Below, piece after piece: positions 1,629 through 63,735 of a DNA stretch of 64,000 bases (position 1 is its first letter; each line of letters opens with the position of its first letter). Below the pieces are notes generated by a model that ran no database searches, was not told the DNA's origin, and saw nothing but the letters and a program-made list of their open reading frames with translations. The DNA is from Chloroflexota bacterium. GTDB lineage: Bacteria > Chloroflexota > UBA11872 > VXOZ01. The stretch is from positions 2,216-66,215 of the forward strand of contig JAJEAH010000042.1 of NCBI GenBank assembly GCA_022824225.1. The letters run 5' to 3'. Both the position numbers and the translations under genes were made by a program.

Positions 1629-2223
1629 TTCCCTCTTGATGGACCGATAGGGGCATGCATTCTATAGTCGATTTCACCTGTCATTCCGAACGGAGCGCAT
1701 CGGAGTGAGGAATCTAGAGTGCTGGGCCTACAATCTGCGCAAAGTACGGCGCTAGACTTCGCGTACAAGGATCGCTACGGCGCTCCATTCGTCATGGCAC
1801 GTGCCACCGGCCCAAATCAAGTGCCCCTGTCCGCTCTCGATGGGGGGTTGGAATAGCGGGGCAATCGACTTGCCGGCTCTTGCCAATGAAACCCTACCGC
1901 CCTGGATTCCGGCTTTCGCCGGAATGACGGATGTATGGCGGCCGGGCTTACGTTTGGCAGTACAGCGCGTTGCGGAAGTCCAGTACGTCTTAGAGCCTGT
2001 ATACAATCGTTTTTTGAGCGACCAACGTTCGCCCCCGTATCCAGTACGGGGCAGGCTCTGAGCACTTCGACAAGCTCAGTACAGGCTTGTCGAAGGGTGA
2101 GTAGAACCGCCGCAAGTTGGCAAATGGCCGTTCATGATTCGACAAGGGCTTCGCGCAGCCCTCAGCACGAACGGCATTCATCAGCCTTGTAGACCCCCTC
2201 TAGAGATGGTCGTAAACAGGTTC

Positions 2224-6949: not shown

Positions 6950-7380
6950 GTAGCGCGGGGGCTTGTCCCCCGCTCGACTTCATACGGCTCGTTCACGGAG
7001 AAGATGGATTCCCGCCCCGTATCGGGGTACGGGGCAAGCTTTCACGGGAATGACGGATACTGTCTCGCTCTCCTGTGTTTGACGTGAGGGCTTGTCCCCC
7101 GCCAACTCCGTGCCGGTTCACGTGCAAAGGCACTCTTGCCCAAGCCCAAAGGACTCACTGGCACTATCGTGGCGCTTCTCCCCTGTAGCGCGGGGGCTTG
7201 TCCCCCGCTCGGCATGGCGGGGGTTCCGTCATTCCCGCGCCCGCGGGAATCCATCCGGTTCTCCCCCCGCTGCGGCGGTCGGGTACGCCAGCCAAGACAG
7301 GATGGATTCCCGTTTCCACGGGAATGACGGATTCTGTCTCGCTCTCCTCTGTTTAGCGCGGGGGCTTGTCCCCCGCCACG
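6950..7380. repeat. array of REP-like palindromic units (A-type ATTCCCGT-N4-ACGGGAAT and B-type GCGGGGG-N5-CCCCCGC hairpins)
   Basis: At least four B units (6954, 7090, 7190, 7360) and three A or A-variant units, with conserved spacers, in the intergenic region between a sulfatase gene and the amidohydrolase gene. Confidence 0.8.
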
Positions 7381-7391
7381 TCCGTGCCGGT

Positions 7392-8747
7392 TCACGGGAC
7401 GAGATTCTCCTGCCCAAGGCCAAAGAACTCATTGGCGTTGTCGTGCAGCACCCGCGCGGCGACGATTCTCGCTTGGTCCACCGAATAGAGGCCTTCCTCA
7501 ACCTTCTCGCTCAGCACGCGGGCGACGTTTTCCCGCGCCATCACGCTGTGGCCGTACGCCAGTTCCACCGGCCCGTAGTCGCCGCCAAAGCCGAAGATCT
7601 TGTTGTGGGGCACGGTTTCCAGCCACTCGTGCAGCGTCGCCCGCGCCACGTACGGGCTGATGATGTGCACCCAGCAGAGATCGAGGTAGACATTCTGGAA
7701 GTTCTTCGCCAGCGTAGCCAGTTCGCTCTGGTACGGATACCCCGCGTGGAAGATGTCGAATCGCGCTCGCGGATACTGGATGAAGAGGTTGACGAGGTGG
7801 GTGGGATTGCTGTTGGTGATGATGTTGCCGTTGCCGGCGTGGAGGCCGGTGTGGATCTGCATGGGTATGTCGTGCTCGATGCAGAGCCGCACTACCTGGT
7901 GCAGCATGTAGTCCTGCAACGGCTTGCACTCCGTGAAGGTCAAGCCGTCTTGGGTCATGCCGTTGCCCTGCGCCCGGGTGCCGGCGACCACTTGCGCAAA
8001 GAGCTGCTCGGCGGTTGAGCGCGGCACGTTGTCATACTGCAAGATGCGCCGGTAGGCCAGCCCACTTTTGACGGTGACCATGCCCTCCGCCTTGGCCTGG
8101 GCATATGCCGCGCCCAAGGCGGACACGAGGTCGTCCAGATCGTAGATGCTGTGGCCGGTCTGGCGTTCCAGTCTCACCACGTCAGCCCGGCTGCTCACGC
8201 TAATAAAGGAATCGAAGCGCATGGCCGGGGCGAAAACTGCTTTGTCCACCTGGGTGGACTGCACGTCGGGGATGGCCAGCGGGATGTTGCCGCGCTCTTG
8301 TAGTATATGCCGGTACCAGGCCGTATGCTGCTGCGAGGCGGTCAATTGCTCGTTGACGCTGCGGTAGCCCGCCAGCGACGGCGCCGCCGACATGAGGTCG
8401 TCCATCCCAAAGAGGTCGCGGCACGCGATGTGCAGCGCCTTTGCATATCCCGTTGTCTTGGCAAACTGCCAGTAACGCAGGAAAATCGCCCAGCGGTCGG
8501 CGGGATCGCGGCTTTGGTCGTACATCCGCTCCTGTTCATCCGGCGTCATGCCGGCGGAGACCAGATCGCTGCCGACGTAGTGGTGCATTTCGGATGAGAG
8601 CAGATCGAGCGGCATTTGCCGCCGGTCTTCCTCGGAAAACGTATGCTCGTGGGTGTCGATGACCGGCTGCGCCCTGACGGCCTCTTCGATTTCGGCAACG
8701 GCGGCAATAGCCACTGGCTCACCTCCCTGTAAATGGCGTTCTGCCAT
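7392..8747 (-). CDS. amidohydrolase-family metal-dependent TIM-barrel hydrolase
   Basis: 451 aa. N-terminal IDTHEH (HxH metal ligand pattern), later HTGLHAGNGN and DLCW motifs, consistent with the amidohydrolase_2-like fold. Substrate is unknown. Confidence 0.5.
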   Translation of the reverse strand: MAERHLQGGEPVAIAAVAEIEEAVRAQPVIDTHEHTFSEEDRRQMPLDLLSSEMHHYVGSDLVSAGMTPDEQERMYDQSRDPADRWAIFLRYWQFAKTTGYAKALHIACRDLFGMDDLMSAAPSLAGYRSVNEQLTASQQHTAWYRHILQERGNIPLAIPDVQSTQVDKAVFAPAMRFDSFISVSSRADVVRLERQTGHSIYDLDDLVSALGAAYAQAKAEGMVTVKSGLAYRRILQYDNVPRSTAEQLFAQVVAGTRAQGNGMTQDGLTFTECKPLQDYMLHQVVRLCIEHDIPMQIHTGLHAGNGNIITNSNPTHLVNLFIQYPRARFDIFHAGYPYQSELATLAKNFQNVYLDLCWVHIISPYVARATLHEWLETVPHNKIFGFGGDYGPVELAYGHSVMARENVARVLSEKVEEGLYSVDQARIVAARVLHDNANEFFGLGQENLVP

Positions 8748-8924
8748 TGTACTGTACTTCTTCGCCGATAGACGTACAAGCGGGAGAGGATTAGCCCCGT
8801 TGACAACTGGCCTGGGAAAGCAAAGTGCAAGCCATTGGATTCCAGATCGTCAATCCCATGAAAGTAGCACGAGGGGTTCCGTTGTGCCCGTGCAAGGTCG
8901 CCCCCGCGCGGACATACAGGGGTA

Positions 8925-9450
8925 AGTAGATGTCATTCCGAGCGAAGCGAGGAATCTCAGGTGCTGGTATAGCAGGGCAATGCGCTAGGTTCCTCACTCC
9001 GCTGCGCTCCGATCGGAAGGACATGTGGAGGCAAGTAGGGAGAACATGCGCCTGTCGGGCCGCGCGGGGGCGCGATCCATGTTCTCTTAGTTGGCACACC
9101 CCACGACCGGAGGGGAGAAGCCCCGCGTTACACAGAGGAGTGCGAGACAGGGATCCGTCATTCCCGTGAAAACGGGAATCCATCTTCTCCGAAAAAGCAC
9201 CGCGCCAAGTCGAGCGGGGGGACAAGCCCCCGCGCTACCCGGAGGAGAGCAGGACGCACATCCGTCATTCCCGTGAAAACGGGAATACATCTTCTCCGAA
9301 AAAGCACCGCGCCCTGCCGAGCGGGGGACAAGCCCCCGCGCTACCCGGAGGAGAGCAGGATGCACATCCGTCATTCCCGTGAAAACGGGAATACATCTTC
9401 TCCGAAAAAGCACCGCGCCAAGTCGAGCGGGGAAAAATCCCCGCGCTACT
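8925..9450. repeat. array of REP-like modules, including three tandem about 105-bp copies of an A-unit plus B-unit composite, preceded by a small E-type hairpin variant (8928-9020)
   Basis: Tandem copies begin at about 9163, 9268 and 9373. The module is CCGTCATTCCCGTGAAAACGGGAATMCATCTTCTCCGAAAAAGCACCGCGCC....GAGCGGGGGACAAGCCCCCGCGCTACCCGGAGGAGAGCAGGA. Confidence 0.8.
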
Positions 9451-9606: not shown

Positions 9607-11370
9607 ATGCTGGTGTGGTCTGAACCCGCCGATTGGGATACCTGCGCCAGGGATACCGGCATCGCCGCTGAGGAGGCGGGCGGGCTTCGTCTCGCCGCGA
9701 GCCATCTCATTACCCACGAGCCCGGGGCGTTCTCTACCCAACACGGCGAGGAACTCTACCAAAATACCCAAGCCCAGGTGTCATTTGAGCTGGGCGATGC
9801 GGTTCCCCAGGGGGCCGACTGCTACTTCTACGCTCGCGAGGAACGGGAGAACCGGTGGCCGCTCAAAGTGACGGTCAACGGCCATGCCGAAGCCGTGGGA
9901 CCCGGCACGGCGCTCGCCGGCGAATTTGCTTGGTACCACGTGCGGTTCTCGCGGCAACACCTGCGGCCCGGCCGGAATACCGTCCGCTTCGCCTGCGACA
10001 GCCCCGCCGCGAACGCGTGGATTCTCTCCGTAGACACCAGCGTTCCCAACGCGCACAGCCGCAAGAGCACGGACGGCGGTCAGTCCTGGGATGCCACAGG
10101 TTTCGGTTTGGAAGGGGCATTATCCGGCGAGTACGTGGTGCGCCTGCGGGTGCGGCAACATCCGGCGCGGGGGACGATTACGAGTTCCATACTTGACGCG
10201 GCCACACTGTTTCCGTCCGCCCCGCTCGTCCTGCACTGGCACGCCGCCACGCCGGCTGGAACGAGGGTCGCCTTGCGCTACCGTACCGGCACACGGCAAG
10301 ACATAGAGCGCGCAGCTTGGCGCGATGTGGTGAATGCCGCGGCGACCGCAAATGAGATCGCGGATTCACACGCCGATTCAGATTCGGGCCAAGCATCGCG
10401 CGGGAATGACGAATTCGGGCAAGCCGAGTTACCGCAAACCGTCGACCCGTGTGTGCAGTGGCAAGCCGAACTGCGTTCCAACGGCGGCAGCGAGTCGCCG
10501 GTTCTGCGGGGCATGGCGCTGCTTCCCAAAAACGCCAGTCCTGACGAGACAAGGCCCGTGAGCCGGTTGTCGTGTGCTGAGAGCCAAGCCACACCTTCTT
10601 ACCCCTTCACCCACCAGGACCCGGCGGAGCCGAAGCTGAGCATCCTGCGCAGGCAGGAGCGTCTTGATGAAACCATCGCCGGCGGGGCAACGCAGTGGGA
10701 GCAGGCGCTGGCGTTGCGGAGTTGGGTAGCGGTGCAATGGGTGCACCGCGCCCCCCACGAGTTCCGGCGCTGCTGCCCGTGGGATGCCCTGACGATCTTG
10801 GACTGGATGCGCGCCGACCGGGGGCACGGCCAGCCGCAACCCGACGCCTACTGCACGCACTACGCGGTGGTCTTGGCGCAGTGCGGGTTGGCGCTGGGCT
10901 GGCAGGCGCGCCTCTGGGTGATGTCCGCCGAGCCGACTTTGCACACGAACGGCCACTTTGTGGCCGAACTTTGGAGCAAGGCGCACGGCAAGTGGGTGAT
11001 GCACGACGCCGATACGGATTCGCACATTGAGAGAGACGGCGTGCCGCTGGGCGTGCTGGAAATCCATGATGCATGGCGAGAAGGCGGCCTCGATGGACTA
11101 TGCGTGGTCGCGGGGACAAACGCCGGCAAGGTGAAGATCGGCCCGGACTGGATCGAAGAGATGCTGCCGCTGGGTCTTTACCGCTTCTGCGGTCTCGTGC
11201 TCCGCAACAACCACCTGTCCACGCTCGTCCCAGGGCCCGTTGAGCACGGCTGGACGGCATACAAGTGGGATGGGTTCCTCTGGTACCGCGACGGAGCCGA
11301 GCCGGAGTTGCCGTTCTTCTCGCTCTCGTCCAGTCGGCGGGCGGATTTCGACTGGATGCCGCAGAGCTAG
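9607..11370 (+). CDS. transglutaminase-like (Cys-His-Asp) domain protein
   Basis: 587 aa. The C-terminal region contains the ordered triad context AYCTHYAVVLAQ (Cys), NGHFVAELW (His), MHDADTD (Asp), characteristic of transglutaminase-like cysteine peptidase cores. The N-terminal approximately 380 aa are uncharacterized. Confidence 0.55.
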   Translation: MLVWSEPADWDTCARDTGIAAEEAGGLRLAASHLITHEPGAFSTQHGEELYQNTQAQVSFELGDAVPQGADCYFYAREERENRWPLKVTVNGHAEAVGPGTALAGEFAWYHVRFSRQHLRPGRNTVRFACDSPAANAWILSVDTSVPNAHSRKSTDGGQSWDATGFGLEGALSGEYVVRLRVRQHPARGTITSSILDAATLFPSAPLVLHWHAATPAGTRVALRYRTGTRQDIERAAWRDVVNAAATANEIADSHADSDSGQASRGNDEFGQAELPQTVDPCVQWQAELRSNGGSESPVLRGMALLPKNASPDETRPVSRLSCAESQATPSYPFTHQDPAEPKLSILRRQERLDETIAGGATQWEQALALRSWVAVQWVHRAPHEFRRCCPWDALTILDWMRADRGHGQPQPDAYCTHYAVVLAQCGLALGWQARLWVMSAEPTLHTNGHFVAELWSKAHGKWVMHDADTDSHIERDGVPLGVLEIHDAWREGGLDGLCVVAGTNAGKVKIGPDWIEEMLPLGLYRFCGLVLRNNHLSTLVPGPVEHGWTAYKWDGFLWYRDGAEPELPFFSLSSSRRADFDWMPQS

Positions 11371-11504: not shown

Positions 11505-11770
11505 TGAGGCTTGCCCCCCGCTCGGATTGGCGGGGTTCCGTCATTCCCGCACCCGCGGAATTTCGTCGCTTCCACTGGATGGACTGGTACAAGGTAATCC
11601 GTCATTCCCGCGCCCGCGGGAATCCATCCGGATTCTTCCCTGCTCGGCATGGTAGGGCGCCTTCTCGGAGAAGATGGATTCCCGTTTCCACGGGAATGAC
11701 GGATTCTGCCTTGCTCCCCTCTATGTGGCGCGGGGGCGTGTCCCCTGCCTCGGTGGTCGAACGCCGGCAG
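11505..11770. repeat. cluster of REP-like A/B palindromic units
   Basis: B units at 11508 and 11740; A units at 11538, 11598 and 11672 (GTCATTCCCGCGCCCGCGGGAATCCATCC and GGATTCCCGTTTCCACGGGAATGAC). Confidence 0.7.
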
Positions 11771-13012: not shown

Positions 13013-13269
13013 AGTTCAAACCGTCATTCCGGCGGAAGCCGGAATCCATCTTCGCTGCGGCGTGAACTCCGGTCTCCGTCCCGCGCTATGGCGTAGCCGC
13101 TCCAGTGTGAACCGGATCAAATCCTCGCCCGCACGCTGGACTCCGCCATCCGCCGGAGTGACGGAAGACACAGTCTACCGCCACAGAGTGGCAGCCCAGG
13201 TACGGACTGAGGGCACTGGCGCCGGAGGGGGTCGGCGCATACCGGCAGCCGCTCGCCGCATACACACCG

Positions 13270-35284: not shown

Positions 35285-35400
35285 CGGCAGCCAGCGCAGG
35301 GTCCGTCATTCCGGCGAAATGCCTGCCCCGTACTTGATACGGGGCAGGAATCCATCTTCGCCCGGCTCCTAGACTCCGGCTTTCGCCGGAGTGACGGCCA
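35285..35400. repeat. REP-like hairpin cluster (CCTGCCCCGTA-N5-TACGGGGCAGG plus GGACTCCGGCTTTCGCCGGAGTGAC variant)
   Basis: Read directly; related variants occur at 39700-39780 and 63640-63690. Confidence 0.7.
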
Positions 35401-39541: not shown

Positions 39542-40290
39542 CGCTGCAAGTTTCTACACTAAAAGTGTCGTTAATATAATACCGTTGGCAGTCGTCCACC
39601 GCGCGGCCTAGCAAAGACCGCGCTTGGCTCACGGTGTCTTCAACGCCGGCGGCGGTCGCTCGTGGCGGACGCCCGTCACTCCCTTGCAATGAGACCGCAC
39701 GCGTTCCGTCGTTCCGGCGCAGGCCGGAAACCATCTTCGTCCGCTCCTGGACTCCGGCTTTCGCCGGAGTGACGTTTTGGGAAGCCGCCGTCGCCGCTCA
39801 GACCGGAGGCGTACTCTCAATCGTTGACGTGCTCTCTTTCACTAACGTGCTTTAATCTTTACAAGGATTATGCAAAGCCGCGCCTCGGATACCGCCCTTC
39901 GGTGGCACACACCCGGTACGGGGACAATGGCGGTTTCCGTCTAACGTGTGCCCGCAACGCGGAACGGGGCGGGAACGCACACGCGCACAGGCTGCAAACC
40001 TACGCTACCGGCCCACACTCCCGCGTAGACGGGAATCCGTTTAGCGCTTGCCGGTCGATTCCACCGGTTTCCCTACCCCGACGCACACGGGAGACCGCAT
40101 GGCGGACCGAGCAAAACGCGTACCAGCGGCCCTGCGCCCCCCGCGCACTTGGGAATCCGCAGTGTTTGTTGGGCCGGGCGCTGGCTTCCGGCTGCCGCCG
40201 GCATGACGGCTTGGATTCGGCCAAACGCAACTCCGGGCGCTTGCTTGCCCTATGCGCGCCGCAGACCGAGCGCTGCCCGGTACGCGGGCC

Positions 40291-45434: not shown

Positions 45435-45480
45435 TTGGGGCACGGCATAGTGTAGGGGCACGGCATGCCGTGCCCCTACG
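45435..45480. repeat. C-type perfect palindrome GTAGGGGCACGGCATGCCGTGCCCCTAC plus adjacent half-copy
   Basis: 28-bp perfect palindrome at 45452-45479, about 70 nt upstream of the SelA-like start. Family members sit at 49427, 57745, 58656 and 61658. Confidence 0.85.
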
Positions 45481-49658: not shown

Positions 49659-49932
49659 GGTAGGTATTGACTGGGGCTGCACAGGTCTGGGTGTCAACGT
49701 AAACGGCTGCTCATCAGAATGCCATACTGAGGAGTGCAGCCGCTATGCCATTCTGTGGGGTGCAGCCGATATGCCATTCTGAGCAGTTCAGCCGATATGC
49801 CATTCTGAGCAGTTCAGCCGATCTGTCATTCTGAGGAGTGCAGCGACGAAGAATCTAGTGTCGGGAGCACACTAGATTCCGCGTCTTTGACGAAGTCAGC
49901 GAACCCTGTTCGTCGCTACGCTCGGAATGACA
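49659..49932 (+). mobile_element. E-type hairpin (MITE-like) element, copy 2, with internal 20-bp tandem reiterations
   Basis: Same leader and terminal inverted repeats as copy 1. The central part carries three to four tandem ATGCCATTCTGAGCAGTTCAGCCGAT-like units. Confidence 0.6.
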
Positions 49933-49965
49933 CTGATTGCCGTCCCAAATGACATAGAGGGTGCA

Positions 49966-50102
49966 GCATTCGGCTTGGCGTGGGCGCGTGCTGCGCTCGG
50001 TTTGGCGTGGGCGTGTACCGCGTTCGGTTTGGTGTGGGCGCGTGCTTCGCTCGGTTTGGCGTGGGCGCAGGCTGCGTTCGGCGTGGCATGGATGTGCGTT
50101 CC
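49966..50102. repeat. tandem direct repeat, 27-bp unit, five copies (GYTCGGYTTGGCGTGGGCGYGTGCTKC)
   Basis: Read directly. The period of 27 keeps frame, so ORF 49927..50139 translates it as FGLAWARAA x5. It lies between the E-type copy 2 and tRNA-Pro. Confidence 0.75.
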
Positions 50103-50413: not shown

Positions 50414-50490
50414 CGGGGCGTGGCTCAGCCTGGTAGAGCGCAGCGTTCGGGACGCTGAGGCCGGCGGTTCAAATCCGCCCGCCCCGACCA
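50414..50490 (+). tRNA. tRNA-Pro (anticodon CGG)
   Basis: Cloverleaf folded by hand: acceptor CGGGGCG/CGCCCCG (C1-G72), D arm GCTC-AGCCTGGTA-GAGC, anticodon arm CAGCG-TTCGGGA-CGCTG with CGG at positions 34-36, T arm GGCGG-TTCAAAT-CCGCC, discriminator A, encoded CCA. Confidence 0.9.
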
Positions 50491-57744: not shown

Positions 57745-57777
57745 CGTAGGGGCACGACATGTCGTGCCCCCTACGGT
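57745..57777. repeat. C-type palindrome copy (GTAGGGGCACGACATGTCGTGCCCCCTAC)
   Basis: Near-perfect palindrome in the intergenic region between the crotonase gene and higA. Confidence 0.8.
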
Positions 57778-57933: not shown

Positions 57934-58224
57934 CTACCCGCGCGCGGAAGCAACCAGCGGTTCGATGCCGCTCACGTCGGCAGTTGCCCGGGCAACGTCC
58001 AGGTCGTACATCCGCTGGAGGTTCAGCCAATAATCGGGCGTCATGGCCAGCGCTTTGCCGATGCGCAGCGCCGTATCCGCCGTGATGGCGCGGCGGCCGT
58101 GAACGATCTGGTTTATACGTATCGGCGCCACGCCAATTGCCTTGGCCAGGCGATACTGGCTGATGCCAAGTTCGTCGAGCATCTCTGCCAGATGCTCACC
58201 GGGATGGATTGGGTCTGTCCTCAT
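57934..58224 (-). CDS. higA: HigA-family antitoxin (XRE-type HTH)
   Basis: IHPGEHLAEMLDELGISQYRLAKAIGVAPIRINQIVHGRRAITADTALRIGKALAMTPDYWLNLQ is collinear with E. coli HigA. Start chosen at MRTDPIHPGE. Confidence 0.75.
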   Translation of the reverse strand: MRTDPIHPGEHLAEMLDELGISQYRLAKAIGVAPIRINQIVHGRRAITADTALRIGKALAMTPDYWLNLQRMYDLDVARATADVSGIEPLVASARG

Positions 58225-58238
58225 GCTCCGGCCACCCG

Positions 58239-58520
58239 TTAGGTGTGATAATCGGTGACTTCGATCTCCATCGCGCCTTGGTCCGTCCAACGAAAGCACA
58301 CGCGCCATTGGTCGTTGATGCGGATGCTGTGCTGACCCTTACGCGGTCCTTTGAGCGCTCTCAACCGGTGTGAGGGCGGCACGCGCAAGTCGGACAGTGC
58401 CGTGGCCGCTACCACGCGTTGCAGCCGCATTCGCGCCCGCCGTTGTATGTTCTGTGGCAAGTGGCGTACGAACTGGCCGCGAAAGACGCGCTCAGTGTTC
58501 GTATCCGAGAATTGCTTCAC
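58239..58520 (-). CDS. higB: HigB-family toxin (RelE/ParE superfamily, plasmid maintenance system killer)
   Basis: 93 aa. The C-terminal GQHSIRINDQWRVCFRWTDQGAMEIEVTDYH matches HigB (..WSITVRANWRITFQF.NGDAYILNYEDYH). It is toxin-first, 14 bp upstream of higA. Confidence 0.75.
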   Translation of the reverse strand: MKQFSDTNTERVFRGQFVRHLPQNIQRRARMRLQRVVAATALSDLRVPPSHRLRALKGPRKGQHSIRINDQWRVCFRWTDQGAMEIEVTDYHT

Positions 58521-58639: not shown

Positions 58640-58682
58640 AGGGGCACGTCAGGCGTAGGGGCACGGCATGCCGTGCCCCTAC
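58640..58682. repeat. C-type palindrome copy plus half-copy
   Basis: ATAGGGGCACGTCAGGCGTAGGGGCACGGCATGCCGTGCCCCTACGCC, upstream of higB. Confidence 0.8.
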
Positions 58683-58742
58683 GCCTTAGCCTCTTCGCCA
58701 GCCGTTGCCGGGGCAATGGTCTTCTTCACCGCACCCGTTGCG

Positions 58743-61292
58743 TCAGTTGCGCAACGGCTTCCCGGTCTTCAGGATGTGAGCGATTCGGTCTTGGGTCTTG
58801 GGTTCGCCGCAGAGGCTGACGAAGGCCTCGCGTTCCAGATCGATGATGTGTTCCTCGTCCACCTGCGCGCCCGCCCGCGCGTCGCCGCCGGTGAGAATGA
58901 ACGCGAGCTTGCGCGCGATCGTCAGGTCGTGCGCCGTGGCCCTACCGGCCTGCGCCGCTTCCGCCACCGGCGCGATCAACGCCTCGCGCTCTTCAGCGCC
59001 GAGCACGGGGAGTTGGACGGGAGCGTAGCGCGCGGCATCCCCGTCTGCCGCCAACGCCAGCGCGGCGGCCTTGGCGCGGTACAGCAGATGGTCGGGATTC
59101 GCCTCGATGATGTCGTCCGCGCGCAGATAGCCCAGGACAACCGCGTCCGGCGCGTGCTGCGAGACTTTTCCCAAGCGAATTGTCTCGAACGCGCGGCGTA
59201 CGGCCGCGGCCACAGCGGACGGACTCCCATCTGCGGCACGTCCGTCATTCCCACGTGCAGCATTTCCGTCATTCCCGTGCAAACGGGAATCCATCTTCTC
59301 TTCCTCCCGCAAACGGGAATCCATCTTCTCTTCCCCCTGCAAACCGGAACCCGTCTTCTCTTCCCCCCGCACTGCCGGCAACCGCAGCAGCAGTTCCTTG
59401 CAGCCGCCGCCGGCGGGGACGAGACCCACGGCAGTCTCCACCAACCCCACGTAGCTCTCACGCGCCGCCACGACGCGCTGCGCCGAAAGTCCCAATTCCA
59501 GCCCGCCGCCCAGCGCGCGGCCGTATAGCGCGGTCACGACCGGCGCCGGCATGCGTTTGAGGGCCAGCAACCCGTATTGCAGCTTGTGGATGAAGGCTTC
59601 GATGGCGTCCCACTGCCTATCCTGCGCAGCCTGCAGAATAACCGCGAGGTTCGCGCCGACGCAGAAATTCGGCTGCACGTGGCTGCTGAGCACCAGGCCG
59701 TCGAAGCCGTCCGGCGTGCGCGCGGCCGCGACCTCCAACATGTCGAGAACGTCGGCGTCGATGGTCTGCTTTGCGCCGTGCACGTCCAGGAACGCGATGC
59801 CGTCGCCCAGGTCCCGCAGCGTCGCGCCCGTCCGGCGCTCTACCGTCTGGGCTTGCGATTGCAACCACGGCAGGGAGAGCGCGCGTTGGCTGCCGGTTAC
59901 CGGCGCGTATGCGCCTTGGGGCGTGGCTTGTTCCGTGCCGGCCCCGGTGCAGCGGTAGAAGGGCTCCCGCCGCGCCGCGAGACCGGCAACCCAGGGCGGC
60001 ACAGCCAGACCGTCGCGGGCCATGCGTTCCGCCGTCTCCGCGATGCCCATCGCTTCCCAGGTCTCGAAAGGCCCCAGCGACCACGCGAAACCCCAGCGCA
60101 TGGCGTTATCGACGCTGGCGATTTCGGGAGCGACCTCGGGGATCTTGGCCGCGGCAAAGGCAAAGAGGCGCGAGAGGATGCGCCAGGCCAACGCGCCGGC
60201 GGCATCCCCGCTCCCAGCGGCATCTTTGCTGTCAGCGCCATAGCTACTGTCGGCAAGCGCGGCGATGCGGGCGCCGCTGTCCTCGATGCGGCGCGCCGCC
60301 GCCAGCGACAGCGCCGCCAGTGCGCGCTGCGGCCGGTACGCCAGCGTCTCCGGGTCCAGCACGTGGAATTCACGGCGGCCGTCGGCCTCAACGGCCTTGT
60401 AGAACCCCTGGCGGGTCTTGTCGCCCAGCCAGCCGCGCGCCACCATCTCCCGCAGAAAACCGGGCACGGCAAACGCTTCTTGTTCCCAGGCCTCCGGCAC
60501 CGTGGCCCGCAGCTTGTCGCAGATGTCCACGTAGACGTCCAGGCCGATGAGGTCGAGGGTGCGAAACGTGGCGCTGCGGGGCCGCCCCAACGGCGGCCCG
60601 GTGACCGTGTCCACCTCATCGGGGCCGAGCCCCAAATCCCGCATGGCGCGGATGGTTTCCGCAAGCACGTACAGGCCGATGCGGTTGCCGACGAAGCCGG
60701 GCACGTCATGCGCGAGCACGCAGCCCTTGCCCAGGGTCTCGCTGCCGAACCGCTGCACCGCCGCGGCAACGGCGGGGTCGGTCTCCTGTGTCGGGATGAG
60801 TTCGAAGAGCCGCAGGTAGCGCGGCGGATTGAAGAAATGCGCGCCCATGAAGCGCGGCCGCAGTCCGGCGGGCAGCGCGGCGGCAATGTCGGTGATGGGA
60901 ATGCTGGAGGTGTTCGTGCTGGCAACGGCGTCCGCCCGGAGATGCGGCGCCAGCGCCGCCCACGTGCTCCGCTTGACGTCCAAGTCTTCGAAGACCGCCT
61001 CGATGACCCAGTCGCAGTCCGCCAGGCGCTCGCGGTGGTCTTCCACGTTGCCGGGACGGATGCGGTCCAGGTCGCCGCGGTCGAACAGCGGCGAGGGCCG
61101 CATGGCGGCGAGTTTTTTCCGGGCGGCCGCCGCCCGCGCGTCGCGACCCGCCGGGTCCGGCAGGTCGAGCAATTCGCACTCGATGCCGAACCCGGCCAGC
61201 AGCGCCGCAATTTGCGCGCCCATGGTGCCGGCGCCAATCACCGCGGCCCGGCGCACGGTCCACACGTCTTCTGCAGTCGTCTGGTTAGCCAA
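58743..61292 (-). CDS. bifunctional 3-hydroxyacyl-CoA dehydrogenase / enoyl-CoA hydratase (FadN-like) carrying an in-frame repeat-derived insertion
   Basis: 849 aa. N-terminal AVIGAGTMGAQIAALLA (NAD Rossmann motif of HCDH) and C-terminal crotonase blocks ending in EAFVSLCGEPKTQDRIAHILKTGKPLRN. The peptide GEEKMDSRLREEEKMDSRLHGNDG inside the crotonase domain is encoded by A-type repeat units. Confidence 0.85.
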   Translation of the reverse strand: MANQTTAEDVWTVRRAAVIGAGTMGAQIAALLAGFGIECELLDLPDPAGRDARAAAARKKLAAMRPSPLFDRGDLDRIRPGNVEDHRERLADCDWVIEAVFEDLDVKRSTWAALAPHLRADAVASTNTSSIPITDIAAALPAGLRPRFMGAHFFNPPRYLRLFELIPTQETDPAVAAAVQRFGSETLGKGCVLAHDVPGFVGNRIGLYVLAETIRAMRDLGLGPDEVDTVTGPPLGRPRSATFRTLDLIGLDVYVDICDKLRATVPEAWEQEAFAVPGFLREMVARGWLGDKTRQGFYKAVEADGRREFHVLDPETLAYRPQRALAALSLAAARRIEDSGARIAALADSSYGADSKDAAGSGDAAGALAWRILSRLFAFAAAKIPEVAPEIASVDNAMRWGFAWSLGPFETWEAMGIAETAERMARDGLAVPPWVAGLAARREPFYRCTGAGTEQATPQGAYAPVTGSQRALSLPWLQSQAQTVERRTGATLRDLGDGIAFLDVHGAKQTIDADVLDMLEVAAARTPDGFDGLVLSSHVQPNFCVGANLAVILQAAQDRQWDAIEAFIHKLQYGLLALKRMPAPVVTALYGRALGGGLELGLSAQRVVAARESYVGLVETAVGLVPAGGGCKELLLRLPAVRGEEKTGSGLQGEEKMDSRLREEEKMDSRLHGNDGNAARGNDGRAADGSPSAVAAAVRRAFETIRLGKVSQHAPDAVVLGYLRADDIIEANPDHLLYRAKAAALALAADGDAARYAPVQLPVLGAEEREALIAPVAEAAQAGRATAHDLTIARKLAFILTGGDARAGAQVDEEHIIDLEREAFVSLCGEPKTQDRIAHILKTGKPLRN
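59240..59375. repeat. three partial tandem A-type REP units located inside the fadN-like coding sequence, in frame
   Basis: CCGTCATTCCCACGTGCAGCATTTCCGTCATTCCCGTGCAAACGGGAATCCATCTTCTCTTCCTCCCGCAAACGGGAATCCATCTTCTCTTCCCCCTGCAAACCGGAACCCGTCTTCTC; on the coding strand this reads ...EEKMDSRL... . Confidence 0.85.
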
Positions 61293-61657
61293 AACTGTCT
61301 CACTTCCTCACTTGTGGTTGGGGCTGGCCCCGGTACTCTCGCTCGGCGTTTCAGCGCACAGCCGGACTCGGTGTCATAGCTGCGCCGGTTGGCGCAGCGC
61401 AACGGACCGCCGGCGGCCGCTCTATTCCGGTAGCGCAGGTTTGCAACCTGTGTCCGCCGGTAGCCGCCCTACTCCGGTAGCGCAGGTTTGCAACCTGCTT
61501 CCGCCAAAGACGCAATCCATGCCGCCCTCTTATCCACCATTCCGCTCGTATTGCGTCCCCGCCGTTGGCAGTGCAAACGGCGGGGGGCAAGCCCCAATAT
61601 TGTCGCATTAATGCCGAAAGCCAGGATCAGATTGCCGCTACCCGGACTGTCAACTAC

Positions 61658-63482: not shown

Positions 63483-63735
63483 GTGCTCCCTACCTCGATT
63501 GCTGTCGGCCTTTACTCAAGCAGAGCTCGTGAAATGTATCCGATCGTAGACTAACCCCGCGCGTGAGCCCGATCCGGTCGGCCCGCCGGCTTGGCGGCGT
63601 TAGACGGCACGCGCATCGAATCCCGCGTGCGCCGCAAATCATCCTCACCGCACCTCCTGGACTCCGGCATGCGCCGGAGTGACAAGTGGACCGGTGCACG
63701 CTCCGGACTATGGGCACGTGTGCGGCAAGACTCAA

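Follow-up and report, generated by a model that had tools for sequence, protein, structure and literature searches.

The 64,000-nucleotide stretch of Chloroflexota DNA analysed here (called the window throughout) raises the question of how copies of a palindromic repeat that mostly lies between genes came to sit in frame within a gene for a β-oxidation enzyme, and what has become of repeat and enzyme since then. The gene and the part of its product that carries the insert are located as follows:

58743..61292, minus strand: FadN-type bifunctional gene (849 aa) that hosts the insert (intact ORF, Pfam, PDB sequence and fold matches)
59202..59378, minus strand: variable loop, residues 639-697 of the protein (alignments and AlphaFold2 model)

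The FadN-type protein carries a 3-hydroxyacyl-CoA dehydrogenase in its N-terminal part and a crotonase fold in its C-terminal part. Pfam matches to 3HCDH_N, 3HCDH and ECH_1/ECH_2, with the domains placed at residues 16-196, 199-299 and 523-641, reproduce the FadN-type order (3HCDH_N, 3HCDH_C, crotonase fold). The homologues are annotated at source as '3-hydroxyacyl-CoA dehydrogenase/enoyl-CoA hydratase family protein' and the fold matches are β-oxidation multienzyme alpha subunits. Residues H152, E164, E599 and E619 do not vary in an alignment of 40 homologues; we take H152/E164 to be the His/Glu pair of the dehydrogenase and E599/E619, which are 20 residues apart, to be the Glu residues of the hydratase. 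The dN/dS ratio of fadN is 0.15-0.2 at dS 0.5-1.0, and the same ratio was obtained for the 120 codons on either side of the insert. Because of this low ratio and of the invariant catalytic residues, the host gene is, as judged from sequence comparison, functional and under purifying selection. The ORF is uninterrupted in 30 clusters, chromosome-level assemblies among them, the identical protein is on record in both NCBI and ENA, a close variant is found on another contig, and the gene order GGT-fadN-(HTH)-ECH is kept in relatives. As the sequence-only reading of the locus had proposed, the frame runs unbroken through the repeat copies, where the peptide reads ..RLPAVRGEEKTGSGLQGEEKMDSRLREEEKMDSRLHGNDGNAARGNDGRAADGSPSAVAAAVRRAFETI...

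The homologue alignment and the AlphaFold2 model both place the insert in a variable loop of the C-terminal crotonase-fold domain, about 20 residues past the second catalytic Glu and flanked by helices 630-637 and 693-707. With 59 residues in the window against 12 in L006, an orthologue free of the insert, this loop has gained 47 residues net, which agrees with the earlier estimate of about 45; the flanking enzyme sequence (CKELLLR and RAFETIR) is kept in homologues, again as anticipated. In distant homologues the length of the loop varies at this place, and their loop is short and unrelated to the repeat. The mean pLDDT of the AlphaFold2 model is 86.8, with values below 50 only at residues 1-9, 355-360 and 641-690. 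The last of these is the sole long stretch of low confidence, a loop between two confident helices, and the insert region is predicted to be disordered.

At the DNA level the insert can be decomposed into the following parts:

59267..59298, plus strand: intact CGTC-1 REP unit, 32 nt (pattern search, inverted-repeat match, nhmmer E=2.9e-9)
59279..59371, plus strand: 30-nt tandem array, 3.1 copies (Tandem Repeats Finder, 90% matches)
59225..59276, plus strand: 24-nt tandem array, 2.2 copies (Tandem Repeats Finder)
59216..59232, plus strand: remnant of a second, inverted REP unit (comparison with orthologues)

On the plus strand the intact unit reads CGTC ATTCCCGT GCAA ACGGGAAT CCATCTTC, that is, a CGTC tag (59267-59270), a stem arm ATTCCCGT (59271-59278), a GCAA loop (59279-59282), the opposite arm ACGGGAAT (59283-59290) and a tail CCATCTTC (59291-59298). 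Its hairpin of 8 bp is perfect, its gene strand encodes EKMDSRLHGND, and across 36 nt it is 97% complementary to the intergenic copy at 11668-11703. The units of the 30-nt array (59279-59308, 59309-59338 and 59339-59368) are each made of the loop, one arm and the tail of the REP and encode GEEKTGSGLQ / GEEKMDSRLR / EEEKMDSRLH; partial nhmmer matches were obtained at 59308-59327 (E=7.7e-4) and 59339-59357, and the same array is present in the 94%-identical relative P0121. Three partial tandem copies had been described at this place. The 3.1-copy array bears out their number, but instead of three insertions it reflects local duplication within a single unit, whose tail, one arm and loop were copied. 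The 24-nt unit is a REP arm, the CGTC tag plus 14 nt, and encodes GNDGNAAR / GNDGRAAD. As for the remnant, its gene strand reads GATGGGAGTCCGTCCGC and encodes DGSPS. The second unit has lost its tag-side arm here, as in the sister lineage L081, whereas it is complete as CGTCACTCCCGCGAAAGCGGGAGTCCATCC in orthologues, where a 30-nt inverted pair with two mismatched positions is found. RNA folding predicts the remnant and the second half-copy to pair in a 19-bp long-range stem (z = -3.1). The in-gene junctions show no direct repeat on their flanks, and nothing resembling an intrinsic terminator or a promoter overlaps the insert. The window copy is probably a derived state, in which a single hairpin is intact, two half-units are additional, the 24-nt unit is present twice and the second hairpin is reduced to a stub.

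The same unit is abundant around the gene. The pattern ATTCCCGT-N4-ACGGGAAT, allowing at most 2 mismatches, occurs 9 times in the window compared to 0.00 in 100 shuffles. In all, 15 perfect or near-perfect units were found in the 64 kb, 14 of which lie between predicted genes. The description of the repeat as otherwise intergenic thus holds for these 14 units, with the reservation that a decayed copy (10360-10413) lies in frame in a second gene, described below. The intergenic copies are:

1898..1929, minus strand: CGTC REP (nhmmer)
7000..7055, minus strand: composite REP with a 24-nt nested hairpin between arm and loop (split nhmmer matches 7001-7015 and 7038-7055)
7227..7258, plus strand: CGTC REP, paired with 7298-7329, tags outward (nhmmer)
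7298..7329, minus strand: CGTC REP, paired with 7227-7258 (nhmmer)
9156..9400, plus strand: three CGTC REPs, at 9156, 9263 and 9369 (pattern, tandem-repeat and nhmmer searches)
11600-11631 (plus) and 11670-11701 (minus): inverted CGTC REP pair (inverted repeat, nhmmer)
13022-13053 (plus, ATTCCGGC type) and 13132-13163 (minus, ACTCCG type): inverted pair (nhmmer)
35365..35396, minus strand: CGTC REP of the ACTCCGGC type (nhmmer)
39707-39738 (plus) and 39743-39774 (minus): inverted pair (nhmmer)
63653..63684, minus strand: REP with a TGTC tag, ACTCCGGC type (nhmmer)

The anatomy of the family was examined in 43 distinct units of the window and its relatives. Positions G2, T3 and C4 of the tag are invariant and C1 is at least 90% conserved, as is the CCA of the tail (columns 25-27). 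Stem cells are paired at 99.1% and both sides change in 5 of the 8 pairs, a result that none of 500 shuffles reached. The first pair is A-U in 42 of the 43 units, the second is U-A in 25 and C-G in 18 (ACT subtype), and the 4-nt loops are GAAA, GCAA, GGAA, GCCC and TTTC. Composite variants with a nested 24-nt hairpin also exist, and the one at 7000..7055 is found in frame in orthologues of both host genes. The three units at 9156..9400 sit in a 106-nt tandem mosaic that also contains a GTAG-type palindrome; the GTAG palindromes of the window (D9, D17 and D19) are a family separate from the CGTC units. As had been noticed, the peptide MDSRFHGNDG starts or sits in spurious ORFs (7092-8018, 8791-9225 and 9087-9413). 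No Y1 (tyrosine) transposase lies beside the repeat clusters at 6.9-13.2 kb, where the genes encode an amidohydrolase and two hypothetical proteins, and no RAYT was seen among the repeat-flanked genes of the window. Rfam holds no family for the unit, its sole match in the window being a tRNA. Repeat units are present at all related loci sampled. A protein search with the consensus insert peptide returned 50 candidates, none of which scored, and when the 40-aa window peptide was run exhaustively through phmmer, 13 matches came back, all of them reading as ORFs over intergenic repeat arrays that read MDSRLHGNDG, VIPAKAGIH and SFPRKRESI in tandem, with no decorated enzymes and no added in-frame cases. 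Since these 13 matches run across intergenic repeat arrays, the repeat is widespread.

By its sequence, the window repeat is a member of the CGTC-1 REP family. CGTC-1 REPs have an unpaired CGTC (sometimes TGTC) tag, an 8-bp stem whose first two positions hold complementary A-T residues, a loop of 4 nt and a short unpaired tail fitting CCA, and no linked transposase is known; they are interspersed, mostly intergenic and often in inverted pairs, but some lie in frame within known genes, whether singly, as dimers of 20-30 aa or as clusters of 43-82 aa (PMC3733652). The window unit likewise has the tag, an 8-bp stem starting with AT, a 4-nt loop and a CCA tail, it is mostly intergenic and forms inverted pairs, and the encoded peptides are identical (DSRFRGND, HSRESGNP, VIPAKAGI and SFPRKRES). 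DSRFRGND and HSRESGNP are listed in the table of intragenic CGTC-1 units of R. conorii (Di Nocera 2013, PMC3733652), and RPE-4 and RPE-6 were equated with CGTC REPs by Di Nocera, De Gregorio and Rocco 2013 (PMC3733652). The parallel drawn earlier with Rickettsia palindromic elements (RPEs) is supported, as is the view that interspersed palindromic repeats lie in frame within a functional FadN-type gene. The accompanying claim of a different repeat is not supported, since the unit has CGTC-1 anatomy and encodes the R. conorii peptides. Three differences from the published CGTC-1 elements were found: the tags of the in-gene pair face inward here, whereas the dimers of PMC3733652 are tag-outward; the spacer has grown to a coding array of 24-nt period, the loop reaching up to 131 aa; and the host is a β-oxidation enzyme, whereas replication and repair genes are emphasised in PMC3733652.

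The second host gene and its insert are:

9607..11370, plus strand: gene for a 587-aa hypothetical protein (ORF; faint Transglut_core matches in some relatives)
10360..10413, plus strand: decayed in-frame REP of composite type, encoding ADSHADSDSGQASRGNDE (nhmmer E=0.17)

Within the decayed copy, GCGGGAATGACG is still intact at 10400-10411. Orthologues carry at the same site an intact unit encoding MDSRFRGNDG (L085) or a composite one, RDSRPVSGTGQAFRGNDG (L086), and homologues at 30% identity are without the REP segment. That the copy has decayed in the window lineage indicates that in-gene units are not always maintained.

Comparison of fadN with its orthologues (69-77% identity) shows the insert in 28 of 29 clusters, always at one codon position, a distribution at odds with the recent event, with related strains lacking the insert, that the sequence-only reading had implied. 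In most orthologues two inverted units surround an in-frame array of 24-nt period. In 8 lineages the left unit begins at a constant distance from GGCGGCGGCTGC, at position 62 (at 65 in L011, and displaced by duplication in the window), and the right-unit variant ACTCCCGC/GCGGGAGT is present in all in-gene copies and in none of the sampled intergenic copies. In a neighbour-joining tree (no support values), the window and P0002 are basal and the insert-free P0029 is nested; since the single insert-free lineage lies within the clade, the sequence comparison points to a later loss of the insert. We consider it likely that there was one old insertion, present since the common ancestor of this Chloroflexota clade. 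The ancestral insert appears to have been an inverted pair of units, of which the window retains a remnant of the second. It should be noted that the tags of the in-gene pair face inward, whereas they face outward in the intergenic pairs found here and in published intragenic dimers, suggesting that the pair may not have arrived as one unit. A 38-aa N-terminal insertion in P0002 and L081 was checked as well and showed no palindrome or repeat match.

The length of the loop ranges from 12 to 131 aa across orthologues and that of the whole protein from 793 to 909 aa. The arrays of 24-nt period begin in a repeat arm and reach 11.8 copies in L084. Between the window protein and that of P0121 (94% identical) the sole indel consists of two more 24-nt units in the latter. 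The left units of L004 and L005 carry nested insertions, and L009 has a hybrid single unit, as expected of an arm-to-arm deletion.

The embedded hairpins are the most conserved nucleotides of the gene, synonymous sites included. In 7 lineages the right unit has an identity of 0.975, and of 0.971 at third codon positions, and surpasses each of the gene's 723 ten-codon windows, which average 0.797 and 0.605; the left unit, with 0.915 and 0.893, ranks in the top 1.5% and 0.4% of these windows, respectively. Where the hairpins differ, either the loop is affected or pairing is preserved by compensation (in the window and L011 from C-G to T-A, in L082 from T-A to C-G); the left hairpin is imperfect in L087, with one uncompensated mismatch, and in L088, with two. 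Rare codons (CGT, GAA, AGT, CCA, GAT and AAT) are conserved in the insert, and the right-unit variant with its tail CCATCC is identical in 9 divergent lineages. As a control, the spacer upstream of fadN was compared across lineages; these regions are heavily rearranged, some of their units are decayed, and orthologous intergenic copies decay or turn over.

Taken together, these results make it probable that selfish CGTC-1 REP DNA was inserted in frame in the ancestor of the clade and has since then evolved as a coding minisatellite. The insert would derive from selfish palindromic DNA whose unit consists of a CGTC tag, an 8-bp stem, a 4-nt loop and a CCA(TCTTC) tail. Two inverted units, their tags facing, would have entered the naturally variable loop of the crotonase fold in the clade ancestor, in the two most hydrophilic of the five stop-free frames (MDSRFRGNDG and RHSRESGSPS). 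We infer that the insert is translated, as a loop rich in Gly, Asp, Asn and Arg that is predicted to be disordered, the enzyme remaining under purifying selection. Slippage seeded by the repeat arms could duplicate pieces of 24, 30 and 48 nt, of which only the in-frame products would survive, and recombination between arms could delete part or nearly all of the insert. A translational bypass of the insert was considered and is unlikely: the 14 inserts available as DNA and the 30 protein clusters keep the sole frame that avoids the TGA which each GGGAATGACG unit contains.

How the hairpins stayed so constant is the least certain part of this reading; we favour selection for the hairpin at the nucleic-acid level as the main cause, and exchange with repeats elsewhere in the genome as a lesser one. 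In an alternative that is possible though rather less likely, the in-gene copies are not under selection: the insert would be a neutral passenger evolving in concert with its repeat family, its hairpins repeatedly renewed from other copies in the genome, hundreds in number, through gene conversion or quasi-palindromic template switching. A CCCGT/ACGGG stem variant is shared by the window and the non-sister L011 and is a common intergenic variant in both genomes, and an identical 24-nt nested piece occurs in fadN of L005 and P0016, in the second gene of L086 and in the window intergenic copy 7000-7055; a variant shared by non-sisters and a piece common to three loci suggest templated exchange rather than pure vertical descent. 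Against re-templating stand a right-unit variant (ACTCCCGC/GCGGGAGT with tail CCATCC) that is unseen in the sampled intergenic copies and identical in the 9 divergent lineages, left units of L001/L003 and L082 that differ from the flank variants, the decay or turnover of intergenic copies in the orthologous fadN-upstream spacer, and the decay of the second-gene copy in the window lineage. The stronger proposal, that both hairpins are functional nucleic-acid elements required at this position and maintained by purifying selection for as long as the clade has existed or longer, the protein merely tolerating their translation, seems to us unlikely. If true, they may be a structured mRNA site or a protein-binding DNA site and could tune expression, mRNA decay or co-translational folding of the hydratase domain; the REP would have been exapted within the gene and the coding array would be a by-product.

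We regard as quite improbable a co-option at the protein level, in which selection acts on the peptide, for example as a charged and flexible lid or interaction arm of tunable length close to the hydratase active site. Its retention in 28 of 29 clusters over dS of about 0.9 and the use of hydrophilic frames at all three in-gene sites would fit such a role, but the conservation of synonymous sites and rare codons points to the nucleotide level and not to the peptide, the loop varies from 12 to 131 aa with the insert lost in one lineage, and the insert region is predicted to be disordered. Recurrent, independent insertions into a hotspot in the loop, lineage by lineage, are very improbable: repeat families are plentiful and dynamic in all the genomes and the content of the neighbouring spacer differs by lineage, yet one junction position, one frame and one private right-unit variant are common to all lineages, and the 8 codons from LLRM to the unit keep their length while diverging in sequence. 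Hardly credible at all is an ancestral low-complexity linker unrelated to the repeat, or a pseudogene or misassembly over it. Although loop length does vary in distant homologues, the homologue alignments, with their unrelated short loop, rule out such a linker, and the 36-nt match to intergenic copies at 97%, the perfect hairpin, the intact ORF in 30 clusters, the dN/dS of 0.15-0.2, the identical NCBI and ENA proteins and the close variant on another contig all argue against these readings.

The ancestral insertion of a CGTC-1 element that we favour can be set beside other known systems. RPEs are in frame and occupy the same site in orthologues of several species (PMC3767692). The likeness of the window repeat to them lies in its in-frame position in genes that stay functional, here with an ORF intact in 30 clusters and the low dN/dS given above, and was judged by the encoded peptides, which match those listed for intragenic CGTC-1 units in R. 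conorii; the classical RPE-1 elements are described as longer. RPE hosts are AT-rich obligate intracellular alphaproteobacteria with reduced genomes, whereas the present host is a Chloroflexota of 64% G+C and about 3.5 Mb. In the literature examined, no report was found of in-frame tandem expansion or of synonymous-site hairpin conservation for RPEs. REPINs consist of GTAG-tagged, extragenic REPs linked with a RAYT transposase present in single copy (Bertels and Rainey 2011, PMC3116915); they share with the fadN insert two inverted REPs with a spacer, long vertical persistence at fixed positions and covariation of the stem within the family, whereas the unit here is CGTC-tagged and lies in coding sequence. 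In-frame fusions of MITE type and coding minisatellites were reviewed by Delihas 2011 (PMC3184786), and again small non-autonomous repeats are fused internally to reading frames, with slippage in multiples of three. MITEs, however, have TIRs of 15-30 bp, a target-site duplication and a length of 70-300 bp; the unit here is 32 nt long and no TIRs with target duplication were recognised.

The novelty of the locus had been overrated, since in-frame intragenic REPs, their dimers and clusters of 43-82 aa have already been described. REPs in frame in genes are known; what is new is their presence in Chloroflexota, where CGTC repeats were unreported, the published survey having found them in Proteobacteria, Chlorobi, Bacteroidetes, Spirochaetes and Thermotogae but not in Chloroflexi (PMC3733652). 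The present work adds Chloroflexota to the hosts of CGTC REPs and extends the translated palindromes known from Rickettsia, of the same CGTC family, to the high-G+C, non-reduced genome of another phylum. In practical terms, the repeat gives rise to spurious ORFs (MDSRFHGNDG.., VIPAKAGI..) and makes metagenome protein clusters heterogeneous in length. Among the orthologues, moreover, the loop of one and the same enzyme runs naturally from 12 to 131 residues, which could be used for studying insertion tolerance in crotonase-fold loops. Finally, hairpins within a coding sequence that are more conserved than the protein they interrupt bear on the question of whether REPs are merely parasitic.

The fadN-type gene (58743..61292, minus strand) encodes an 849-aa protein with the Pfam domains 3HCDH_N (residues 16-196), 3HCDH (199-299) and ECH_1/ECH_2 (523-641), and both sequence and fold searches led to alpha subunits of beta-oxidation multienzyme complexes. 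With the insert excluded, the gene has a dN/dS of 0.15-0.2 (dS 0.5-1.0), and the 120 codons on each side of the insert behave in this respect as the rest of the gene. Residues H152, E164, E599 and E619, which we take to be catalytic, show no variation in 40 aligned sequences and are spaced as one would expect of the dehydrogenase His/Glu pair (H152/E164) and the two hydratase Glu residues (E599/E619). The AlphaFold2 model of the protein has a mean pLDDT of 86.8 and a pTM of 0.86; its sole long low-confidence stretch, residues 641-690, is the insert, flanked by confident helices (630-637 and 693-707).

Within this gene, positions 59267-59298 of the plus strand read CGTC-ATTCCCGT-GCAA-ACGGGAAT-CCATCTTC, a perfect 8-bp hairpin; over 36 nt it shows 97% complementarity to an intergenic copy (11668-11703). 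The window has 9 occurrences of the core repeat pattern, and shuffles have 0.00. The reading frame is open through the insert, whose predicted junction peptides include LPAVR-GEEK.., ..LHGNDGNAAR and ..AADGSPSAVAAAVR. With hairpin, intergenic match and open frame all present, the palindromic repeats that the sequence-only reading placed in frame within a fadN-like ORF are real, and the three partial tandem copies it described correspond to the first of the following arrays.

Tandem repeats in the fadN insert (Tandem Repeats Finder)
59279-59371: 30-nt unit, 3.1 copies
59225-59276: 24-nt unit, 2.2 copies

A structure-agnostic scan together with a profile search gave 15 good REP units in the window, 14 of them between predicted genes. 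The statement that the repeat is otherwise intergenic thus holds for these units but not for a decayed in-frame copy at 10360-10413, in the ORF 9607..11370 (a 587-aa hypothetical protein with faint transglutaminase-core matches in some relatives). This segment encodes ADSHADSDSGQASRGNDE, in which GCGGGAATGACG is still intact. Orthologues of this second gene (65-69% identity) carry MDSRFRGNDG at that site, the related locus L085 (5001-6827) having a perfect unit whose frame matches that in fadN; other orthologues have the composite RDSRPVSGTGQAFRGNDG (L086, 5001-6866), and the segment is missing from homologues at about 30% identity. This second, conserved gene is host to an ancient in-frame CGTC REP that has decayed in the window lineage. 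The proposed survey for other copies in frame, carried out across the window, thus found them to be rare, not unique and able to decay.

The family was described from 43 distinct units of the window and related loci. The G-T-C of the CGTC tag is invariant in these units, which have the 4-nt loop and the CCA tail in common. In the 8-bp stem 99.1% of cells are paired, a percentage somewhat favoured by the collecting pattern, which fixed purine/pyrimidine classes in both arms; five of the eight pairs have changed on both sides among the 43 units, and 0/500 shuffles were as high. CGTC-tagged REPs of identical anatomy were described as family CGTC-1 by Di Nocera et al. 2013 (PMC3733652), whose supplementary table lists LDSRFRGND, CHSRESGNP, VIPAKAGI and SFPRKRES for the intragenic units of R. 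conorii, the peptides that the units studied here encode; these authors equated the R. conorii units with RPE-4 and RPE-6 (PMC3733652). From the anatomy, the matching peptides and this published equation, the repeat in fadN is assigned to the same family as the Rickettsia case, CGTC-1. The parallel with Rickettsia palindromic elements drawn in the sequence-only reading stands, but the repeat is not a different one. No Rfam family matches the unit, and no association of CGTC repeats with transposase genes was found previously (PMC3733652).

The spurious ORFs that start with or contain MDSRFHGNDG are present in the window, as had been reported. Database entries P0189-P0201, predicted proteins of 80-360 aa from unrelated genomes, are translated intergenic CGTC REP arrays with MDSRLHGNDG, VIPAKAGIH, SFPRKRESI and WIPVCTGMT in tandem; entries of this type are an annotation artefact of the family.

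A protein search yielded 29 orthologue clusters (69-77% identity, 793 to 909 aa). In the alignment 28 of them carry an insert at a shared position, which follows GGGCKELLLRM, so that the insert-free related strains implied earlier are reduced to one exception. The inserts start ..EEKMDSRFRGNDG.. and in 21 clusters end ..RHSRESGSPS, while the loop of more distant homologues (40-55% identity, about 800 aa) is short at this point, unrelated and variable in length. The ancestral design was read from the DNA of 15 related loci, from MAGs labelled Chloroflexota.

Ancestral fadN insert, gene strand
Left unit: GGATGG-ATTCCCGC-TTTC-GCGGGAAT-GACG
Spacer, between the left and right units
Right unit, opposite orientation: CGTC-ACTCCCGC-GAAA-GCGGGAGT-CCATCC

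As the units lie in opposite orientation, the two CGTC tags point at each other. The left unit starts at an identical offset in eight lineages. In a neighbour-joining tree, built with the insert columns removed and carrying no support values, the window and its closest DNA-level relative L081 (protein P0002) form the basal branch, and the only insert-free protein, that of L006 (P0029), is nested within the clade. The simplest reading is a single ancient insertion with later loss in the L006 lineage.

Two smaller insertions were seen elsewhere in the protein. One of 12 aa, SSYGADSKDAAG, in the linker region (residues 350-361, about 60210-60245; low AlphaFold2 confidence at 355-360), is confined to the window lineage, including P0121, and occurs in no other orthologue. 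The other, 38 aa (PEDAPRTPALTPGRGTSERDAKGVRFDPDPSPGIRR), lies after LDLP in the Rossmann domain of P0002 (residues 45-82, L081 about 255-370), with neither palindrome nor repeat-family match detected.

Comparison of the main lineages gives 53-66% identity at four-fold degenerate sites elsewhere in fadN (random expectation 36%). The hairpins are far better conserved.

Conservation of the hairpin units, compared to 723 ten-codon windows
Right unit, 7 lineages: nucleotide identity 0.975, third-position 0.971; above all windows
Left unit, 8 lineages: nucleotide identity 0.915 (top 1.5%), third-position 0.893 (top 0.4%)
Gene-wide mean: nucleotide identity 0.797, third-position 0.605

The right unit is identical in two further lineages, and the conserved positions take in rare codons such as CGT, GAA, AGT and CCA. 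Left units differ from one another at loop positions or by compensatory changes (C-G became T-A in the window and in L011, T-A became C-G in L082); this hairpin is imperfect in L087 (one mismatch) and L088 (two). The right-unit variant ACTCCCGC..CCATCC was absent from all sampled intergenic copies, which speaks for vertical descent of the right unit under a probable nucleotide-level constraint. Some templated exchange with the genomic repeat pool may have occurred as well, as suggested by the CCCGT/ACGGG stem variant shared by non-sister lineages and by a 24-nt nested hairpin that recurs unchanged in L005/P0016 (fadN), L086 (a different gene) and the intergenic unit at 7000-7055 of the window. 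No terminator- or promoter-like site coinciding with the insert was found. One of the six frames of every unit contains a TGA, and the frame kept by each insert is one without it, an argument that ribosomes probably read the insert.

In some REP units, intergenic and in-gene, a small hairpin of ~24 nt (CCCGTATC..GGGGCAAGC) is nested between an arm and the loop, and another nested piece, GCGCCCCGACACGGGGCGAGC, occurs in the in-gene left units of L004/P0024/P0028. These pieces suggest a sub-element targeting REP loops, or conversion between copies.

The insert has continued to change. Spacer arrays of 24-nt period begin inside the arm GGGAAT-GACG, reaching 11.8 copies in L084 and having both 24-nt and 48-nt periods in L007, and loop length ranges from 12 to 131 residues across orthologues. 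L009 has one hybrid unit, ATTCCCGC-GAAA-GCGGGAGT, encoding MDSRESGSPS, the product expected from a deletion running from an arm of one unit to the like arm of the other. The right unit has lost its arm next to the tag in the window and its sister L081; the window has, besides, two duplications of the left unit's tail, arm and loop, with a 30-nt period. In P0121, whose identity to the window protein is 94%, all these derived features recur, and the only indel between the two proteins is exactly two more 24-nt units in P0121. From these arrays, length range, duplications and indel, the locus behaves like a minisatellite, kept in frame and seeded by the repeat.

The gene order GGT-fadN-(HTH)-ECH is kept in related loci; ECH directly follows fadN in L087, and an HTH gene alone lies between them in L082. 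In the window a HigB/HigA toxin-antitoxin pair (57934-58520) sits between fadN and the downstream ECH gene, flanked by copies of a 30-nt perfect palindrome, GTAGGGGCACGGCATGCCGTGCCCCTAC (57746-57775 and 58655-58684; further copies at 45452, 49428 and 61659), and this cassette looks inserted. Alongside the CGTC family the window holds a second abundant repeat, which is GTAG-tagged and forms mosaics with CGTC units, such as a 106-nt unit x 2.8 at 9153-9449.

Other repeats in the window
6950, 7185, 7353, 9211, 9317, 11725, 34589, 34634, 49283, 61761: GTAG-tagged repeat GTAGCGCGGGGGCTTGTCCCCCGC
1498-1621: tandem repeat, 44 nt, 2.8 copies
49719-49844, 49961-50091, 50414-50487: tandem arrays immediately upstream of a tRNA gene, with periods of 26 nt (4.8 copies) and of 27/54 nt (4.5 copies)
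61407-61505: tandem repeat, 47 nt, 2.1 copies, upstream of fadN

CGTC REPs and RPEs that lie in frame within genes and are kept at orthologous sites are already known (PMC3733652; PMC3767692), as are intragenic CGTC dimers encoding 20-30 aa and clusters encoding 43-82 aa (PMC3733652), and the repeats were recorded from five phyla, Chloroflexi not among them (PMC3733652). Compared to these, what is new in fadN is the phylum, the host enzyme and the inward-facing pair of units, together with the size that the coding array reaches and the exceptionally strong conservation measured for the hairpins.
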